DNA from: Enterobacteria phage vB_EcoM_IME340
DNA length: 64,000 nucleotides
Reading direction: 5' to 3' (one strand)
Sequence record: MH051916
The notes under the pieces are model-generated. The model made no database searches. It was not told the origin of the DNA and was given only the letters and a program-made list of their open reading frames with translations. The number at the start of each line of letters is the position of its first letter. Position 1 is the first letter of the stretch. A program made the position numbers and the translations under genes. Shown piece by piece: positions 1 through 54,412 of this stretch.

Positions 1-572
1 GACTATCCTTGCTTAACTCGTAGAGAGTTTGAAGGAATTGACTATGATCGTGAGACTAATTTAAATCTGACTAAATTAGAAGTAATTACGATTATGGAAC
101 AAGCATTTTGCTATCTTAATAGTAAAAGCCCAATTAAAGGCGTGTTTGTTTTTGATGACGAAGGACAAGAATCAGTTAATTCCGTAGCATTTAACAAGAT
201 TATTGACGTTATAAATAATATTGAAGATCAATGGTCAGTCCGTCGTCTGATGCAAGCCCTAGGTACGGATTTGATTGTTAATAACTTCGACCGCATGTAT
301 TGGGTAAAATTATTTGCTTTAGATTATCTTGATAAATTTAACTCAGGTTATGATTATTATATCGTTCCTGATACTCGTCAAGATCATGAAATGGATGCGG
401 CTAGGGCGATGGGTGCTACAGTAATTCATGTAGTTCGTCCTGGTCAAAAATCCAATGATACTCATATTACAGAAGCTGGATTGCCAATTCGTGATGGCGA
501 TTTAGTAATTACAAACGATGGTTCTCTTGAAGAACTTTTTTCTAAAATTAAAAATACACTAAAGGTACTATA

Positions 573-573
<1 letters not shown>
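1..573 (+). CDS. 1: deoxynucleoside monophosphate kinase (gp1), 3' portion; 5' end lies upstream of window
   Basis: Open frame from base 1 to stop at 571-573; translation matches remembered C-terminal part of T4 gp1 (..EQAFCYLN..KNTLKVL). Confidence 0.85.
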
Positions 574-1270
<697 letters not shown>

Positions 1271-1282
1271 TTTCACAAAGTT

Positions 1283-1313
1283 ATTTACACGGGGTTTTAG
1301 TTGTGATACTATT
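1283..1313 (+). promoter_or_regulatory. sigma70-type early promoter (-35 ATTTAC, -10 GATACTAT)
   Basis: ATTTAC at 1283-1288 and TG-extended -10 about 16 bp downstream; upstream A/T tract. Confidence 0.5.
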
Positions 1314-1348
1314 ACCCTATCAAAACAAATGAGTGATTGGAGAATAAA

Positions 1349-1621
1349 ATGAAAACATTTAAAGAATTTATCAATGAAGCTACTTTTAACGAAAAAGTAA
1401 AAATTAGCAAAGCTGTCAAGACTTTGATTGCTGACATCAATTACCTATATGATATTGATTTAACTGACTATGTAACAGTTGGTAACAAACGTAACTTTTT
1501 CGTGTTTGACATCTCTGAACTTGACCAGAATCAAATTAACAACATTGAGCGTTTTGCTAATGATAAGGGTCTTCGTCATGAGTCAGCGGGTTATAAAAAA
1601 TACGCAATTTATTTAAAATGA
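1349..1621 (+). CDS. internal-protein-like protein with capsid-targeting N-terminus (MKTFKEFINEA)
   Basis: ATG at 1349 preceded by GGAGAATAAA; N-terminus matches T4 Ip capsid-targeting consensus; track ORF 1337 is an upstream TTG extension. Confidence 0.65.
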   Translation: MKTFKEFINEATFNEKVKISKAVKTLIADINYLYDIDLTDYVTVGNKRNFFVFDISELDQNQINNIERFANDKGLRHESAGYKKYAIYLK

Positions 1622-1652
1622 GTTTACTTTTAAATAGGGTTGTGGTACTATT
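1622..1652 (+). promoter_or_regulatory. sigma70-type early promoter
   Basis: GTTTAC 1622-1627, -10 GGTACTATT around 1644-1652. Confidence 0.5.
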
Positions 1653-1681
1653 ATCTCATCAAAATTAATTAGGAAAATAAA

Positions 1682-1990
1682 ATGAAAACATTTAAAGAAT
1701 TTATCAATGAAGCGGCTGCACCAAAGACATTCGTTATTAATACTCAAGCGAGTCTTGATGATGAGTACGCGGAGGCAATTCTGAGGTCACTTGCTAAGAA
1801 CGGCGTTGAAGTAATCGCCTCGGACTTTAAGAAAGGGGCTTCCGAGATGTTTATTTCTATAACTAAAGGATCTAAAGCTAAAATCAAATCATCATTCGGT
1901 GTTGCTCGTACCGATCAAATCGACAATCATGACTTTAAACAAACTGGTGTTAAACGGCAGAACATAATTGCATCACGCGGAATAAAATAG
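1682..1990 (+). CDS. internal-protein-like protein (MKTFKEFINEA N-terminus)
   Basis: 102 aa ORF; same capsid-targeting N-terminus as previous gene; SD AGGAAAATAAA. Confidence 0.65.
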   Translation: MKTFKEFINEAAAPKTFVINTQASLDDEYAEAILRSLAKNGVEVIASDFKKGASEMFISITKGSKAKIKSSFGVARTDQIDNHDFKQTGVKRQNIIASRGIK

Positions 1991-2000
1991 TTTATAAACC

Positions 2001-2031
2001 GTTTACTTTTAGATGGGGTAGTGATATTATT
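2001..2031 (+). promoter_or_regulatory. sigma70-type early promoter
   Basis: GTTTAC 2001-2006, -10 TGATATTAT about 17 bp downstream. Confidence 0.5.
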
Positions 2032-2058
2032 ACCCTATCAACTACTGAGGAGAATAAA

Positions 2059-2241
2059 ATGAAACGTTGTGAATTAATTCGAAATGTTGCTATTGCAATT
2101 TCTGCTTCCGCTTTTAGTTTTTCAATGTTTGTTGGATTTATATGCGGATTATTAACTACAGCAGAAAATGTGTTTTCACTTGTAGTAGCATTTTTAATTG
2201 GTTTAATTGCTATCGTTATGGATAAAATTTCTAAAGGTTAA
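2059..2241 (+). CDS. small hydrophobic (membrane) protein
   Basis: 60 aa ORF, SD GGAGAATAAA, two hydrophobic stretches. Confidence 0.5.
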   Translation: MKRCELIRNVAIAISASAFSFSMFVGFICGLLTTAENVFSLVVAFLIGLIAIVMDKISKG

Positions 2242-2243
2242 TA

Positions 2244-2531
2244 ATGATTCTTTATGCTAAAGTATCATCCATTGAAAATGGATATAAATATGATCAAGAA
2301 GCAACTAAAGCCTTGATTGATGATTATGGCATTTTAACGTGTTTTGAAGTTGAAAAGGTTTACATTGACCGTTCATCTTCTCAGGTTAAATTAGTTAAGG
2401 AAGACCGTAAATTTAATACAGTAAATTTTGATTTCTTTATTGAAACAGAAAAAGGTCCTCTTGAATATGATATTTTCAAGAATCCTTTGGGTCTTGAATG
2501 CATCGTAAACATGTATTATCATAAATGGTAA
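2244..2531 (+). CDS. hypothetical protein
   Basis: 95 aa ORF immediately following previous stop. Confidence 0.5.
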   Translation: MILYAKVSSIENGYKYDQEATKALIDDYGILTCFEVEKVYIDRSSSQVKLVKEDRKFNTVNFDFFIETEKGPLEYDIFKNPLGLECIVNMYYHKW

Positions 2532-2628
2532 ATATGCTTTAAGAATTATTTGTTATTATTAACTCATATCGCACTGATTAATACCCTCTATCATCAAGGG
2601 TTCTTGCTTGAGAGCCTTTGTTAATAAT

Positions 2629-2701
2629 TGGGAATTAGCCAAGTTGGTAAGGCACTGGATTTTGATTCCAGGATGCAAAGGTTCGAGTCCTTTATTCCCA
2701 G
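2629..2701 (+). tRNA. tRNA-Gln (anticodon UUG), CCA not encoded
   Basis: Manual fold: acceptor TGGGAAT/ATTCCCA, anticodon stem CTGGA/TCCAG with loop TTTTGAT, T-loop GGTTCGAGTCC. Confidence 0.8.
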
Positions 2702-2702
2702 C

Positions 2703-2789
2703 GCGAGAATGGTCAAATTGGTAAAGGCACAGCACTTAAAATGCTGCGGAATGATTTCCTTGTGGGTTCGAGTCCCACTTCTCGCACCA
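2703..2789 (+). tRNA. tRNA-Leu (anticodon UAA), long variable arm, CCA encoded
   Basis: Acceptor GCGAGAA/TTCTCGC, anticodon loop CTTAAAA, T-loop GGTTCGAGTCC, 3' ACCA. Confidence 0.8.
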
Positions 2790-2794
2790 AATTT

Positions 2795-2868
<74 letters not shown>

Positions 2869-2878
2869 ATTTAATTTA

Positions 2879-2952
2879 CTCCGTGTAGCTCAGTTTGGTA
2901 GAGCGTCTGCTTTGGGAGCAGAATGTCGCAGGTTCAAATCCTGCCGCGGAGA
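2879..2952 (+). tRNA. tRNA-Pro (anticodon UGG), CCA not encoded
   Basis: Acceptor CTCCGTG/CGCGGAG, D-arm GCTCAGTTTGGTAGAGC, anticodon loop TTTGGGA, T-loop GGTTCAAATCC. Confidence 0.8.
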
Positions 2953-2954
2953 CT

Positions 2955-3044
2955 GGAGGCGTGGCAGAGTGGTTTAATGCACCGGTCTTGAAAACCGGCA
3001 GTCGCTCCGGCGACTCATAGGTTCAAATCCTATCGCCTCCGCCA
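2955..3044 (+). tRNA. tRNA-Ser (anticodon UGA), long variable arm
   Basis: Acceptor GGAGGCG/CGCCTCC, anticodon loop CTTGAAA, T-loop GGTTCAAATCC, 3' GCCA. Confidence 0.8.
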
Positions 3045-3049
3045 GTTTT

Positions 3050-3125
3050 GCTGATTTAGCTCAGTAGGTAGAGCACCTCACTTGTAATGAGGACGTCGGC
3101 GGTTCGATTCCGTCAATCAGCACCA
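3050..3125 (+). tRNA. tRNA-Thr (anticodon UGU)
   Basis: Acceptor GCTGATT/AATCAGC, D-arm GCTCAGTAGGTAGAGC, anticodon loop CTTGTAA, T-loop GGTTCGATTCC, 3' ACCA. Confidence 0.8.
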
Positions 3126-3126
3126 A

Positions 3127-3201
3127 GGCCCTGTAGCTGGAAGGTTCAAGCAAGCGACTCATAATCGCCAGATGGTGGTTCAATTCCACCCAGGGCCACC
3201 A
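3127..3201 (+). tRNA. tRNA with CAU anticodon (Ile2/lysidine type as in T4, or Met-like)
   Basis: Acceptor GGCCCTG/CAGGGCC, anticodon loop CTCATAA, T-loop GGTTCAATTCC, 3' ACCA; T4 carries an Ile tRNA with this anticodon. Confidence 0.7.
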
Positions 3202-3210
3202 AATTAATTT

Positions 3211-3297
3211 GGGGAGTTATCCCGTAGAGGTAGCGGTGTGGACTGTAAATTCATTGTCATTGCGACTCGGGTGGTTCGACTCCATCACTCCCCACCA
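3211..3297 (+). tRNA. tRNA-Tyr-like (anticodon GUA), class II with long variable arm
   Basis: Acceptor GGGGAGT/ACTCCCC, anticodon stem GTGGA/TTCAT with loop CTGTAAA, T-arm GGTGG-TTCGACT-CCATC, 3' ACCA; D-stem is only 3 bp so the call is less secure. Confidence 0.55.
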
Positions 3298-3301
3298 ATT
3301 T

Positions 3302-3376
3302 GGATGTGTAGCTCAATGGCAGAGCGATCGCCTGTTAAGCGATTGGTTATAGGTTCGAATCCTATCACGTCCGCCA
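3302..3376 (+). tRNA. tRNA-Asn (anticodon GUU)
   Basis: Acceptor GGATGTG/CACGTCC, D-arm GCTCAATGGCAGAGC, anticodon loop CTGTTAA, T-loop GGTTCGAATCC, 3' GCCA. Confidence 0.75.
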
Positions 3377-3380
3377 AATC

Positions 3381-3456
3381 CGAGGCATAGCTCAGAAGGA
3401 AGAGCAAGGACCTTCTAAGTCCTAGGTCGTAGGTTCGATCCCTACTGCCTCGACCA
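3381..3456 (+). tRNA. tRNA-Arg (anticodon UCU)
   Basis: Acceptor CGAGGCA/TGCCTCG, D-arm GCTCAGAAGGAAGAGC, anticodon loop CTTCTAA, T-loop GGTTCGATCCC, 3' ACCA. Confidence 0.8.
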
Positions 3457-3472
3457 ATTAAGTGAGGAAAAT

Positions 3473-3823
3473 ATGAAAGGTAATGTTTATTTAGTAGTTC
3501 ATGATTTAACATTCTATTTTAATCACAATGACACTGTTATTTCTGAACGTGTAATTAATTTACTTTATCAGCATGCAGATTATGTTTATGTCGAAAACGA
3601 ATACGGTCATTGGCAATTTCTCAAAAATCGTTCATTTGGTTTAGATGGTTACGAATACTTTGAACGTAAAGACCTTTTAGATAAAATTCCATTATCTACA
3701 CAATATCAAAATCACAAGTCTTTACATAAATGTCGGCTAATTCGAAATGCTGAATCTGCTTATGAAGCAATTGATTTATGGCGTAAACGCCGTGAACAGA
3801 TTGATGCTTTAAAAGAATACTAA
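3473..3823 (+). CDS. hypothetical protein
   Basis: 116 aa ORF starting 17 bp after tRNA-Arg with SD GAGGAAAATATG. Confidence 0.55.
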   Translation: MKGNVYLVVHDLTFYFNHNDTVISERVINLLYQHADYVYVENEYGHWQFLKNRSFGLDGYEYFERKDLLDKIPLSTQYQNHKSLHKCRLIRNAESAYEAIDLWRKRREQIDALKEY

Positions 3824-3829
3824 GAAACC

Positions 3830-4129
3830 GGGTCGCTACCGGTAAGTCGTCGGACTGATGTTCCCTGGAGTATAGTTTCTCCCACAGTTTTACTGTGTTC
3901 TGATTCTTTACTATCACAGCAGAAACGGCGCACAGAATTATCGATTCGAGGAAATATCTTTGCCGTAAGCCGAGTAGCGTTTTTGACGGAACGTTCGGAT
4001 ATGGTCGAGATATGGCCTTTTAAAAATATTAAGTAGCGTCAACTGCTTAATAACCGGGTTCGAATCCCGGCGTTTCGTACAAACACTTGCCTTAGCAGGT
4101 GGAACCCCGACAAGGTTGCCGCAAGGCTT
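3830..4129 (+). ncRNA. candidate structured stable RNA(s); contains a tRNA-like T-arm
   Basis: About 300 nt with no credible ORF in a dense genome; CCGGG-TTCGAAT-CCCGG T-arm motif at 4054-4072; ends at an intrinsic terminator; T4 encodes stable RNAs (species 1 and 2) beside its tRNAs. Confidence 0.35.
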
Positions 4130-4247: not shown

Positions 4248-4811
4248 ATGAAAACCTATGCCGAGTTTTTAACCGAAGCAGCAAAATTACCATCTGAAGC
4301 AGATCTTACTAAAGTATTCTTCCACTTGGACCCAAAAGACCGCGGCGATTTTCTTAAGTGGAAAGCTAAAGCTATTGAAATGTATAACATTGATAATAGT
4401 TCTTTTACGATGAGTCAAGAAAATAAATTCAATAAAGCATTTTTCAAAATTTCTAAGAAACTGGCATCTGGCGCTCAGGTTCCTAAATCTGCCTTAGCTA
4501 CTCCTGAACGTGCACCTGTCAAAATTTCTAAGAATATGTTCGACACTAAAAAATACGTTAATGCTTTGAATAAAGCTCTTGATGCATTGGATGATGCAAA
4601 GAAGGCAGCCCGTGATCTTCAAGATGTGTACACCGATTTTGATCGTAAAACTAAAGGTTCTATTTCAAATAGCGAACGCAATAGTGTAAGTGTTTATTCT
4701 GATAGTCTTGATGTTCTTGGCGATGCGTATACTGAAATTAAAAATCGTATTAACACCGCATCTAAGCTAAAAGCTGCCGCAGAAGCTATAATAACTAAAC
4801 TAGATAAATAA
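4248..4811 (+). CDS. internal-protein-like protein (MKTYAEFLTEA N-terminus), 187 aa
   Basis: Capsid-targeting N-terminus; size similar to T4 IpIII but location differs. Confidence 0.6.
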   Translation: MKTYAEFLTEAAKLPSEADLTKVFFHLDPKDRGDFLKWKAKAIEMYNIDNSSFTMSQENKFNKAFFKISKKLASGAQVPKSALATPERAPVKISKNMFDTKKYVNALNKALDALDDAKKAARDLQDVYTDFDRKTKGSISNSERNSVSVYSDSLDVLGDAYTEIKNRINTASKLKAAAEAIITKLDK

Positions 4812-7552: not shown

Positions 7553-8795
<1,243 letters not shown>

Positions 8796-9273: not shown

Positions 9274-9534
9274 ATGAAAATGTATCAAGAATTTATCGCT
9301 GAAGCAGATGCCAAAGGCCCCAAATTTAAAGTTAAAGCTTTCGTTGGTGATGCCGAAGATTTTGGCTCATTAAAACGTAATGGGTATTTTTTCTTAGGTG
9401 GTGATGGTAAAGAAATCAACACCTATGCAAAACGTAGTGAAATTGCTTATGTTGCTGCAAGTCCTAAAGTAGATGTTGACGATATTGGATACGATTTTAA
9501 CAACTTCGGAATTATTTCTGGCGGTGAAGCTTAA
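9274..9534 (+). CDS. internal-protein-like protein (MKMYQEFIAEA N-terminus)
   Basis: 86 aa ORF with capsid-targeting N-terminus. Confidence 0.6.
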   Translation: MKMYQEFIAEADAKGPKFKVKAFVGDAEDFGSLKRNGYFFLGGDGKEINTYAKRSEIAYVAASPKVDVDDIGYDFNNFGIISGGEA

Positions 9535-9597: not shown

Positions 9598-9912
9598 ATG
9601 AAAACATATAAAGAATTTATTGCAGAATCCGCCAACCAACGCGTTGAAGGTGGTTATATTTGGATTGAACAAGTTGAGCCACCGAGCCGCACTTCTACAG
9701 GTAAATGGAAAATTACTGTTGATGGTCCTGGTGGTAAACGTAGGACTCTTAAAGAAATTAATGGGTACTATGAAGAAGCTCTTTCGGATGCAGGAACTTA
9801 CATGATGCAAATCATGATTAAAAACCCTGAAAACCGTTTTGCAGCTAAAGTCTTCCGACGCATCGGTAATAAACTTTATGACGCATACTCTAAAAACTTC
9901 CCTAAAGAATAA
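9598..9912 (+). CDS. internal-protein-like protein (MKTYKEFIAESA N-terminus)
   Basis: 104 aa ORF with capsid-targeting N-terminus. Confidence 0.6.
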   Translation: MKTYKEFIAESANQRVEGGYIWIEQVEPPSRTSTGKWKITVDGPGGKRRTLKEINGYYEEALSDAGTYMMQIMIKNPENRFAAKVFRRIGNKLYDAYSKNFPKE

Positions 9913-9938: not shown

Positions 9939-10517
9939 ATGAAAACGTATCAAGAATTTATTGCTGAAGCTTCTGTAGTAAAGGCCAAAGGCATTAATAA
10001 GGACGAGTGGAACTATCGTGGTGGAAACGGCTTTGACCCTAAAACAGCCCCTATTGAACGATACTTAGCTACAAAAGCTTCCGATTTTAAAGCTTTCGCT
10101 TGGGAAGGACTTCGCTGGCGTACCGATTTAAATATTGAAGTTGACGGACTTAAATTTGCTCATATTGAAGATGTTGTTGCTAGTAACTTAGACGCAGCTT
10201 TTGTTAAAGCCGACAGTGATCTTCGTCGCTGGAATTTAAAACTGTTCTCTAAACAAAAAGGCCCGAAGTTTGTGCCTAAAGCCGGTAAATGGGTCATTGA
10301 TAATAAATTAGCTAAGGCTGTCAACTACGCTGGTCTTGAATTCGCCAAGCACAAATCATCATGGAAAGGTCTTGATGCAATGGCTTTCCGTAAAGAATTT
10401 GCCGATGTTATGGCTAAAGGCGGCTTTAAGGCAGAAATAGATACCTCTAAAGGTACGTTTAAGGACGCTAATGTTCAGTACGCTTACGCCGTTGCTAATG
10501 CAGCCCGTGGTAATTAA
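9939..10517 (+). CDS. internal-protein-like protein (MKTYQEFIAEA N-terminus), 192 aa
   Basis: N-terminus identical to the canonical T4 Ip targeting peptide. Confidence 0.65.
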   Translation: MKTYQEFIAEASVVKAKGINKDEWNYRGGNGFDPKTAPIERYLATKASDFKAFAWEGLRWRTDLNIEVDGLKFAHIEDVVASNLDAAFVKADSDLRRWNLKLFSKQKGPKFVPKAGKWVIDNKLAKAVNYAGLEFAKHKSSWKGLDAMAFRKEFADVMAKGGFKAEIDTSKGTFKDANVQYAYAVANAARGN

Positions 10518-36502: not shown

Positions 36503-37705
36503 ATGAAAGTATGCATTTTTATGGCTCGAGGTCTTGAAGGTTGCGGTGTAACTAAATTTTCTCTTGAGCAGCGTGATTGGTTTATTAAAAATGGTCATGA
36601 AGTAACTTTGGTTTATGCTAAAGATAAATCATTTACTCGTAATTGCGCGCATGATTATAAGTCATTTTCAATTCCAGTTTTATTGGCAAAAGAATACGAT
36701 AAAACACTTAAGCTGGTAAATGATTGTGATATTCTAATTATCAATTCAGTTCCTGCTACTTCAGTAGAAGAAGACACCATTAATAACTATAAAAAAATTA
36801 TTGATAACATTAAACCTTCGGTTCGTGTTGTAGTTTATCAGCATGACCATTCTTCTCTTTCTTTACGCCGAAATTTGGGATTAGAAGAAACTGTTCGTCG
36901 AGCTGATGTTATTTTTAGCCATTCTGATAATGGTGATTTTAATAAAGTTTTAATGAAAGAATGGTATCCGGAAACTGTTTCTTTGTTTGATGATATTGAA
37001 GAAGCACCGACCGTATATAACTTTCAGCCTCCTATGGATATTGCGAAGGTTCGATCAACCTACTGGAAAGATGTTTCTGAAATTAACATGAATGTTAACC
37101 GTTGGATTGGTCGTACTACTACATGGAAAGGTTTTTATCAGATGTTTGATTTTCACGAAAAACATCTTAAACCTGCAGGACTAAGTACTATTATGGAAGG
37201 TCTGGAACGTTCTCCAGCGTTCATTCCTATTAAAGAAAAAGGAATTCCATACGAGTATTATCGTCTTCATCAAGTAGACCAAATTAAAATTGCTCCTAAT
37301 TTGCCAACGCAAATTCTCGACCGCTATGTAAATAGCGAAATGCTTGAACGCATGAGTAAATCCGGATTTGGTTATCAGCTAAGCAAGTTGGACAAAAAAT
37401 ATCTACAACGTTCTTTAGAATATACTCATCTCGAGCTTGGTGCATGTGGAACAATTCCGGTATTTTGGAAATCTACTGGCGAAAATTTAAAATTCCGTGT
37501 TGATAATACTCCTTTGACCTCACATGATAGCGGTATCATTTGGTTTGATGAAAATGATATGGAATCAACATTTGAACGTATTAAAGAACTGTCATCTGAC
37601 CGAGCTCTTTATGACCGTGAGCGAGAAAAAGCATATGAATTTTTGTATCAGCATCAAGATTCAAGCTTCTGCTTTAAAGAACAGTTTGACATTATTACAA
37701 AATAA
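36503..37705 (+). CDS. a-gt: DNA alpha-glucosyltransferase
   Basis: 400 aa; ..ICIFMARGLEGCGVTKFSLEQRDWFIKNGHEVTLVYAKDKSFTR.. matches remembered T4 alpha-gt. Confidence 0.9.
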   Translation: MKVCIFMARGLEGCGVTKFSLEQRDWFIKNGHEVTLVYAKDKSFTRNCAHDYKSFSIPVLLAKEYDKTLKLVNDCDILIINSVPATSVEEDTINNYKKIIDNIKPSVRVVVYQHDHSSLSLRRNLGLEETVRRADVIFSHSDNGDFNKVLMKEWYPETVSLFDDIEEAPTVYNFQPPMDIAKVRSTYWKDVSEINMNVNRWIGRTTTWKGFYQMFDFHEKHLKPAGLSTIMEGLERSPAFIPIKEKGIPYEYYRLHQVDQIKIAPNLPTQILDRYVNSEMLERMSKSGFGYQLSKLDKKYLQRSLEYTHLELGACGTIPVFWKSTGENLKFRVDNTPLTSHDSGIIWFDENDMESTFERIKELSSDRALYDREREKAYEFLYQHQDSSFCFKEQFDIITK

Positions 37706-48107: not shown

Positions 48108-48848
48108 ATGATTAATGACTCTATGACAGTTGAAGAAATCCGTCTTCATTTGGGAATTGCATTAAAGGAAAAAGATTTCGTAATTGATAAAACCGGTGTT
48201 AAAACTATTGAAATTATTGGCGCATCATTTGTAGCAGATGAACCTTTTATTTTTGGTGCTCTTAATGACGAATACATTCAGCGTGAACTTGAATGGTATA
48301 AGTCTCAAAGTTTGTTTGTTAAAGATATTCCAGGTGAAACACCAAAGATTTGGCAGCAGGTAGCATCTTCTAAAGGCGAAATTAACTCGAATTATGGTTG
48401 GGCCATCTGGTCAGAAGATAACTATGCCCAGTATGATATGTGTTTAGCTGAACTTGGTCAAAATCCTGATTCTCGACGTGGTATCATGATTTATACTCGT
48501 CCATCCATGCAGTTTGACTACAACAAAGATGGTATGTCAGATTTCATGTGTACGAATACAGTACAGTACCTGATTCGTGATAAGAAAGTCAATGCAGTGG
48601 TTAACATGCGTTCAAATGACGTGGTCTTCGGATTCCGTAATGATTATGCATGGCAAAAATACGTAATAGATAAATTAGTATCTGATTTGAATGCAGGTGA
48701 TTCAACTCGCCAGTATAAAGCAGGTTCTATTATATGGAATGTCGGAAGCCTTCATGTGTATTCTCGTCATTTTTATTTGGTTGACCATTGGTGGAAAACT
48801 GGCGAAACTCATATTGCGAAAAAAGATTATAACGGTGAGTGGAAATGA
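48108..48848 (+). CDS. 42: dCMP hydroxymethylase
   Basis: 246 aa; MI.DSMTVEEIRLHLG..KTGVKTIEIIGASFVADEPFIFGALNDEYIQRELEWYKS.. matches remembered T4 gp42. Confidence 0.9.
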   Translation: MINDSMTVEEIRLHLGIALKEKDFVIDKTGVKTIEIIGASFVADEPFIFGALNDEYIQRELEWYKSQSLFVKDIPGETPKIWQQVASSKGEINSNYGWAIWSEDNYAQYDMCLAELGQNPDSRRGIMIYTRPSMQFDYNKDGMSDFMCTNTVQYLIRDKKVNAVVNMRSNDVVFGFRNDYAWQKYVIDKLVSDLNAGDSTRQYKAGSIIWNVGSLHVYSRHFYLVDHWWKTGETHIAKKDYNGEWK

Positions 48849-49687
48849 TTCAATTCGTAATTCCAAGCTATCAACGCGTAGGGGCAGTTTCTGCCCTTGA
48901 TATGTTTCCGACTGATTATGAACCTCATATTGTAGTACGTGAACACGAAGAAAAAGCTTATTATGACGCTTATGGGTCTAGAGCTAAAATTGTAGTTATT
49001 CCCGATGATGTAAATGGAATTGCTGGAACTCGTAAAGCAATTACTGATATGTATGCAGGTCAACGAATTTGGATGATTGATGATGATACTACTATTCGTA
49101 TGAGTTCAATGCGAAAGAAAGATGATCGTCGCTGCGTAGATAAAATTAATCAGTTAACCCGTGAGCAGTTCTATGAATTGATTCAATACGTTGAAGATGC
49201 CATGGATTGCGGGTATTATCATGGTCATGCTCGTCTACCAATTTTTAAAATTACTTCATCTTGGGGTAATTATCGTGAAAATTCATATGGATTCACGAAT
49301 ACATGGTATGATTTAGGAAAACTTACAACAGAACAAATTGGGTATGGAAAAATTGATTTATGCGAAGATATGTATGCATTTCTCAATTTAATTAATCAAG
49401 GTTATCCACATTTGGCCTTGTTCAAATATCTGGTTGTATCCGGAAAAGCACAAGCTCCTGGCGGATGCAGCTCAATTCGTAGTAATTCTAAACATAATAG
49501 AGCGCTTGAGCAAATCAATAGAGAATTTCCAGAGCAAGCTCGTTGGAAAACATCGAATATTGAAAAGAGAAAATCGTTGGGTGAAGAAGATGAGCCATTA
49601 AAGGTTCTTCGCATGTGTGTTTCGCGCAAAGAAAAATCAGAAGCGTTTCATAAGTTTAATGCTATTCATCCAATAGCAGTTGATTAA
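48845..49687 (+). CDS. putative DNA-modifying glycosyltransferase occupying the T4 beta-gt locus (not T4 beta-gt-like)
   Basis: ATG 48845 overlaps gene 42 stop (ATGA); 280 aa with DDD motif (IWMIDDDTT); position between 42 and uvsX; sequence unlike remembered T4 beta-gt. Confidence 0.5.
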   Translation: MIQFVIPSYQRVGAVSALDMFPTDYEPHIVVREHEEKAYYDAYGSRAKIVVIPDDVNGIAGTRKAITDMYAGQRIWMIDDDTTIRMSSMRKKDDRRCVDKINQLTREQFYELIQYVEDAMDCGYYHGHARLPIFKITSSWGNYRENSYGFTNTWYDLGKLTTEQIGYGKIDLCEDMYAFLNLINQGYPHLALFKYLVVSGKAQAPGGCSSIRSNSKHNRALEQINREFPEQARWKTSNIEKRKSLGEEDEPLKVLRMCVSRKEKSEAFHKFNAIHPIAVD

Positions 49688-54247: not shown

Positions 54248-54412
54248 ATGAAAACATATAAAGAATTTATCAAAGAAGATATGGTAGCTGGAGATTCAGG
54301 TGGTAATCCTGAAAATATCTCTACTGGAACAACGTCAGGTGCTGTAGTAAATAAAGGTCCTGAACAGATTCCTAAAAAGAAAAAAGAGGAATCTAAAGAA
54401 AAAGAAGAGTAA
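54248..54412 (+). CDS. small protein with internal-protein-like N-terminus (MKTYKEFIKE), 54 aa
   Basis: ATG after GAGGTTAAT; capsid-targeting-like N-terminus; Gly/Lys-rich tail. Confidence 0.4.
   Translation: MKTYKEFIKEDMVAGDSGGNPENISTGTTSGAVVNKGPEQIPKKKKEESKEKEE

Follow-up and report, generated by a model that had tools for sequence, protein, structure and literature searches.

Do the two small genes between gene 57B and the tRNA genes of this phage encode internal head proteins, are they new, and what would their products do? We analyzed a 64-kb part of a Tequatrovirus genome, extending from gene 1 to about gene 61 and referred to here as the window. A first, sequence-only reading of this DNA had described two adjacent genes with the common N-terminus MKTFKEFINEA. 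Both open reading frames (ORFs) were found at the positions given in that reading, 1349-1621 and 1682-1990, on the + strand. Their proposed location between 57B and the tRNA array was also correct: 57B ends at 1270, and a tRNA.4 homologue, tRNA.2, and ten tRNAs lie downstream (Table 1). In T4 it is ipI, named in the same reading, that sits between 57B and trna.4, and the two genes occupy this ip hot-spot, with 57B on the left and the tRNA.4 homologue on the right. The placement of 57B agrees with that of 57B in T4, RB32, and SF2-1 when positions are compared.

Table 1. Features of the window and Ip9-body homologues in other phage records (L005 to L007)
Feature	Position	Strand	Remarks
Gene 1 (dNMP kinase), end	to 573	+	
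57A	573-815	+	
57B (Acb1 family)	812-1270	+	conserved left border of ip hot-spot; Pfam Acb1, E = 2.7e-60
Early promoter motif before ip9, T4-type, ATTTACA...TGATACTAT	1283-1312	+	1 mismatch
Repeat copy 1: Shine-Dalgarno GGAG, ATG, ip9 leader codons	1339-1380	+	reference copy
ip9 CDS	1349-1621	+	90 aa; ATG start, TGA stop
ip9 capsid-targeting leader MKTFKEFINE	1349-1378	+	codons 1-10
Predicted mature Ip9	1379-1618	+	80 aa, 9.3 kDa, pI 8.2
Early promoter motif before ip7, T4-type, GTTTAC...TGGTACTAT	1622-1651	+	exact; within direct repeats D2/D3
Repeat copy 2: Shine-Dalgarno, ATG, ip7 leader codons	1672-1713	+	
ip7 CDS	1682-1990	+	102 aa; ATG start, TAG stop
ip7 leader	1682-1711	+	
Predicted mature Ip7	1712-1987	+	92 aa, 9.9 kDa, pI 9.7
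Third early-promoter repeat, before tRNA.4 homologue	2001-2030	+	exact; right recombination border of array
tRNA.4 homologue, 60-aa hydrophobic protein	2059-2241	+	conserved right border; phrog_1692; placed as trna.4 in T4, RB32
tRNA.2	2244-2531	+	96% identical to T4
Ten tRNA genes	2629-3456	+	
187-aa leader-bearing protein	4248-4811		phrog_2280
Ip5-like protein	8514-8795		48% identical to RB15 Ip5; in e/ipIII region, not beside 57B
86-aa leader-bearing protein	9274-9534		
104-aa leader-bearing protein	9598-9912		
IpIII	9939-10517		
DNA alpha-glucosyltransferase	36503-37705		E = 3.9e-237
Thymidylate-synthase-family protein	48108-48848		at gene 42 (dCMP hydroxymethylase) position
Second glycosyltransferase, TAGT-like	48839-49687		282 aa; next to gene 42, where T4 has beta-gt
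Seuratvirus SHIN8: leaderless stand-alone 74-aa Ip9 homologue	L006 2992-3216		44% identity
44-kb coliphage EC3-1: Ip9-body ORF at end of record	L005 1-210		52% identity
Kuttervirus maane: Ip9 body as last ~75 residues of 755-aa protein	L007 967-3234		phrog_3867; 35-36% identity

Two features of the borders were observed in addition. In many records 57B is annotated as an 'RNA ligase'; its Pfam match is to Acb1, an anti-CBASS phosphodiesterase, and an anti-defence gene therefore directly adjoins the ip cassette array. On the right, trna.3 is absent between tRNA.4 and tRNA.2, unlike in T4, and the tRNA array (Gln, Leu, Gly, Pro, Ser, Thr, Met/Ile-CAT, Tyr, Asn, Arg) comprises ten tRNAs without an internal segB homing endonuclease gene, whereas T4 has eight tRNAs plus segB.

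As judged by sequence comparison, the upstream ORF is almost certainly ip9 and the downstream ORF ip7. Ip9 is 92% and 94% identical to the Ip9 proteins of RB15 and RB32 and 100% identical to gp14 of SF2-1. Ip7 is 98% and 97% identical to the Ip7 proteins of RB15 and RB32, with two or three substitutions only, and shares its length of 102 aa and its leader with Ip7 of RB15, RB32, T2, and K3 (CAA84464; YP_803081; phrog_2667). Full-length PHROG matches were obtained to phrog_7673 for Ip9 (E = 1e-54) and to phrog_2667 for Ip7 (E = 2.7e-40), both of which carry the annotation 'internal head protein'. Together with T4 ipI in the same slot, these families bear out the internal-protein-like identity assigned by the sequence-only reading. 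Its further suggestion that the genes add to the Ip repertoire has to be dropped, as both are already named and present in dozens of sequenced Tequatroviruses; Ip7 and Ip9 were reportedly named by Repoila et al. in 1994. They are known genes and not a new finding, and the tandem is annotated in many genomes.

Over the 788 bases around ip9-ip7, identity to Shigella phage SF2-1 and Escherichia phage LYE-01 is 99.9%, and some match to this region is present in 627 phage records. Among 50,697 phage records, the Ip9 body was found in 192, the Ip7 body in 282, and the whole Ip9-Ip7 tandem in 48. One unusual form occurs in the UNVERIFIED record of Escherichia phage OLB35 (MH992122), where a 77-aa ORF annotated 'ip7 protein' (L010 1875-2108) is chimeric, consisting of the middle of Ip7 and the C-terminal ~33 residues of Ip9, with a GTG start and no leader. 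This chimera may reflect either true recombination or faulty assembly of the record.

The identity of the two N-termini extends to the DNA level. A direct repeat of 42 nt spans the Shine-Dalgarno sequence and the first 11 codons; 41 of 42 bases match, which is far beyond chance, and the ten leader codons of ip9 are nucleotide-identical to those of ip7. Both ORFs begin with MKTFKEFINE, of the form MKT(Y/F)xEF(I/L)xE, and across 11 Ip9 and 11 Ip7 homologues the positions M1, K2, E6, F7, I8, and E10 were invariant. Strongly diverged members of the Ip9 family also retain the leader pattern (MKSFKEYLTES, MKTFQEFLNEA, MKSFKEFVTES). In an alignment with the T4 proteins, MKTFKEF also begins IpI, and the sequence I-x-E followed by A agrees with IpII and IpIII. 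During T4 head maturation, the prohead protease gp21 recognizes (L/I)-x-E followed by a small residue, and the leader is removed after the glutamate. This motif is present in both proteins as I-N-E followed by A at residues 8 to 11; elsewhere in the two proteins, (L/I)-x-E occurs only once, at residue 55 of Ip9.

The leader of ip9 in the window is not the one found in its closest named relatives. Ip9 of RB15 and RB32 resembles the protein described here in its length of 90 aa, its locus, and its place directly upstream of ip7, but differs at leader residues 4, 5, 9, and 12 (MKTFKEFINEAT here vs MKTYQEFISEAA). In RB32 and G4498 the ip9 leader reads MKTYQEFI(S/A)E, and 7 of 30 bases differ from the leader in the window, both flanks of which are ip9-like. 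The ip9 leader of the window looks like a short gene-conversion tract between neighboring cassettes. As part of the recombination repeat, the leader may owe a share of its conservation to gene conversion and not to selection.

The sequence-only reading had also placed each gene behind its own early promoter. When the window was searched with the early promoter pattern GTTTAC-N15-TGnTAnnAT, 21 matches were obtained, all on the + strand, compared to 0.6 expected from shuffled sequences, and T4-type motifs indeed precede both ip9 (one mismatch) and ip7 (exact). The ip9 promoter was also recovered by a sigma-70 scan with TG, and in the alignment it coincides with the region of the T4 ipI promoter. 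Many early-motif matches have the common extended form GTTTACAAG...TGGTA(C/T)(T/A)AT. The two intergenic regions contain no exact late-promoter core. Such a core, TATAAATA, is located at 210-217, and as no terminator was predicted on the + strand from gene 1 to 3883, late read-through is possible. Early transcription is compatible with packaging, since T4 ipI is preceded by the same promoter sequence.

A comparison of the segment between 57B and tRNA.4 shows how the two genes belong together. T4 carries ipI in this segment, T2 carries Ip5-Ip7, RB32 Ip5-Ip9-Ip7, RB15 Ip5-Ip9-Ip7-Ip8, and G4498 Ip9-Ip7-Ip8, and the window carries Ip9-Ip7. Accordingly arranged, ip9 here directly follows 57B and ip5 is absent from the locus, whereas RB15 and RB32 have ip5 at this place; ip7 is the last cassette before tRNA.4 as in RB32 and T2, whereas RB15 and G4498 add ip8 after it. 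In an alignment of the window with G4498, RB32, T2, and T4, the differences were insertions or deletions of whole cassettes with breakpoints within the repeated promoter and leader. The boundaries lie inside the repeated unit AATTTCACAAAGTTGTTTACA...GTGATACTATTACC...GGAGAATAAAATGAAAAC, which corresponds to the promoter, Shine-Dalgarno sequence, and leader common to all cassettes, and the five sequences rejoin at the third promoter copy. Recombination between repeats would be expected to leave such a pattern, and this model was reportedly proposed in 1994. The genes ip9 and ip7 are two cassettes of the polymorphic T-even internal-protein locus between 57B and tRNA.4. In each, an early promoter and a ribosome-binding site precede a conserved leader of 10 codons, the capsid-targeting sequence (CTS), which is joined to a body without relationship to other Ips.

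Transfer of cassettes from one ip locus to the other, namely, between 57B-tRNA.4 and denV-e, occurs as well. A distant relative of Ip7 (about 45% identity) adjoins denV in Gaprivervirus SP18, and in the window an Ip5-like protein is encoded in the e/ipIII region. Five ORFs of the window in addition to ip9 and ip7 begin with an MKT(Y/F)xEF-type leader (4248-4811, 8514-8795, 9274-9534, 9598-9912, and 9939-10517), giving a total of seven candidate internal proteins by this feature. Assignment of ORF 9274-9534 to the Ip7 family, indicated by a PHROG match, was unsupported when the mature regions were compared directly (E = 0.17). Distant from both ip loci, a 54-aa ORF at 54248-54412 (phrog_1823) begins with the CTS-like sequence MKTYKEFIKE, followed by a Gly/Ser-rich part and a Lys/Glu-rich tail; closely downstream follows a 342-aa ORF, probably gene 61 (primase) judging solely from its length and location.

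Beyond the leader, the two proteins have nothing in common. The divergence of the bodies noted in the sequence-only reading was confirmed by hhalign with leader-trimmed family alignments, which gave a probability of 0.6% and ruled out homology between the Ip9 and Ip7 bodies. That reading had also called for a homology search of the mature regions against IpI; none was found, only the leader being alignable, and the same holds true for IpII and IpIII of T4, for Ip5 and Ip8 of RB15, and for the 187-aa ORF at 4248. The absent homology to IpI leaves the assignment as internal proteins unweakened, because these characteristically share only the leader (PMC12373910, PMC3012670). The mature parts showed no sequence or fold similarity to Ip1, Ip2, or Ip3, neither body gave a Pfam or NCBIfam match above threshold, and profile searches with both bodies gave no match below E = 0.6 among PDB sequences. 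A Foldseek search against viral models yielded one significant match, to a 535-aa protein at 31% identity. AlphaFold2 modeling, at moderate confidence, predicts generic small alpha/beta domains, with the order alpha-beta-beta-alpha-beta-beta for Ip9 (pLDDT 78) and a beta-alpha-beta-beta-alpha core followed by a disordered basic tail from residue 84 for Ip7 (pLDDT 68).

By analogy to T4, Ip9 and Ip7 are very probably packaged in the head and processed. The leader MKTFKEFINE would target the precursor to the scaffolding core of the prohead, and the prohead protease gp21 would cleave after Glu10, leaving the predicted mature N-termini ATFNEKVK... for Ip9 and AAAPKTFVINTQ... (AAAPK...) for Ip7. 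As far as is known, gene 21 is carried by all Tequatroviruses; genes 21 and 22 fall beyond the 64-kb window, the nearest relatives of which are complete Tequatrovirus genomes. The mature, mildly basic proteins of ~9 to 10 kDa would remain with the DNA in the head and be injected together with it. In T4, a 10-residue CTS directs proteins into the prohead core and injection with the DNA follows (PMC3012670, PMC9391042, PMC12373910); the CTS work of Mullaney and Black is cited in PMC9391042. In the searchable literature, neither Ip7 nor Ip9 was found as the subject of proteomic or functional work, and no direct evidence placed either protein in virions or showed its cleavage or injection; internal proteins were unmentioned in a paper on Yersinia T4-like phages and in the BrxU paper.

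What might the injected proteins do? The T4 proteins Ip1, Ip2, and Ip3 show no relationship to one another, and each of them inhibits its own GmrSD variant, without cross-protection (PMC12373910). T4 IpI (IPI*), which is injected and inhibits the GmrSD of E. coli CT596, has the slot, the promoter sequence, and the MKTFKEF start in common with the genes described here, and its mature form is similar to Ip9 and Ip7 in size and charge (pI 9.0). IpII and IpIII, injected inhibitors of the ECOR21 and ECOR17 GmrSD variants, resemble them in the 10-residue leader ending in I-x-E before A and in being encoded by small, non-essential accessory genes with a body common to no other Ip (PMC12373910); unlike those of Ip9 and Ip7, their genes belong to the second ip locus, next to denV and e. 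By this analogy, each mature protein would neutralize one specific first-line host defence, and on balance we favor such an anti-defence role for Ip9 and Ip7. As an explanation of the locus as a whole, ip cassettes whose products are packaged, processed, injected, and directed against host defences appear likely.

The likeliest target would be a variant of the GmrSD-family type IV nucleases, which attack glucosyl-hmC DNA, an assignment that we regard as tentative. Because the window encodes an alpha-glucosyltransferase, another glycosyltransferase, and a thymidylate-synthase-family protein at the position of gene 42, the phage DNA should contain glucosylated hmC and be a GmrSD substrate. The combination of the alpha-glucosyltransferase with a TAGT-like enzyme suggests T2/T6-style glycosylation of hmC.

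The distribution of the Ip9 body bears on the nature of the target. Searches by tblastn and PHROG scans identified this body in Seuratvirus SHIN8, in the 44-kb coliphage EC3-1, and at the C-terminus of Kuttervirus proteins of 755 to 861 aa. In the literature searched, which did not include the 1994 naming paper, no report of the Ip9 body outside T4-like phages was found. An exhaustive profile search of 1.84 billion cluster representatives returned only 19 clusters (50% identity) with an Ip9 body, some with the leader and most without; the leaderless metagenomic members lie on 2-kb contigs that contain only small unannotated genes. One hit, the 340-aa repeat protein P0047 (35.8 bits in three stretches), was treated as a chance match, because nothing in its sequence resembles Ip9.

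Tentatively, the Ip9 body might be a portable domain of ~70 aa in which N-I-E-R and E-P-x-G-x-K-K motifs are conserved; it would circulate among enterobacterial phages that are not related to one another and would have been captured by T4-like phages through leader fusion. In this reading, fusion to the leader lets the domain arrive with the DNA, and the SHIN8 and EC3-1 versions are leaderless stand-alone early proteins. The existence of leaderless homologues indicates that the domain can be useful without packaging and that the target is not necessarily peculiar to hmC phages. IPIII without its CTS is still functional when expressed in the host (PMC9391042), which is compatible with Ip9 being a circulating domain plus an added leader.

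These homologues support the alternative that Ip7 and Ip9 are packaged and injected but inhibit another early-acting defence or host function that is not of the GmrSD type, a proposal we consider possible though doubtful. To our knowledge, neither the Seuratvirus nor the 44-kb coliphage nor the Kutterviruses with an Ip9 body carry glucosyl-hmC DNA, and a target common to them would therefore not be hmC-specific. The lack of resemblance of either body to Ip1, Ip2, or Ip3 points in the same direction, but these three are themselves mutually dissimilar and yet all target GmrSD variants (PMC12373910). Moreover, diversity within the GmrSD family is very high, and its member BrxU is called promiscuous in the title of a paper (PMC13390438).

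Alternatively, Ip7 and Ip9 could be packaged and processed but serve a generic head-filling or DNA-associated function, such as charge neutralization or help in ejection, without a specific host target. Both mature proteins are small and basic like IpI*, about 1000 internal-protein molecules are embedded in the DNA of T4 heads (PMC3012670), and neither Ip7 nor Ip9 has a known target. However, all three T4 Ips that were tested proved to be specific inhibitors (PMC12373910), and a generic role would leave unexplained both the cassette-wise turnover of unrelated bodies and the leaderless Ip9-domain proteins in phages without a T4-type head. We therefore consider it improbable. Still less probable is that Ip7 and Ip9 are early cytoplasmic accessory proteins that are packaged little or not at all and keep the leader mainly as part of the recombination repeat, for although both genes follow early promoter motifs with no late core between them, the ip9 leader looks converted to the ip7 sequence, and the Ip9 body has leaderless homologues, T4 ipI shows the same early promoter arrangement and its product is known to be packaged, and the leader pattern persists in Ip9-family members too diverged for gene conversion to explain.

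We return to packaged, injected anti-defence proteins as the preferred explanation. As a discovery, ip7 and ip9 matter little, and their relevance is practical. Work from 2022 to 2025 showed that all three internal proteins of T4 act as specific inhibitors of host defences, and the 2025 results assigned distinct GmrSD restriction enzymes to them. About ten further Ip families, Ip7 and Ip9 among them, are therefore candidates for new inhibitor-target pairs. They are also candidates for explaining host range among therapeutic T4-like phages. If the Ip9 body is indeed a portable domain, the defence inhibited by Ip9 would not be one directed specifically at glucosyl-hmC DNA, and the Ip9 family would allow a comparison of injected and newly synthesized delivery of one inhibitor. 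The locus itself illustrates how small anti-defence cassettes are swapped via repeated promoter and leader sequences.
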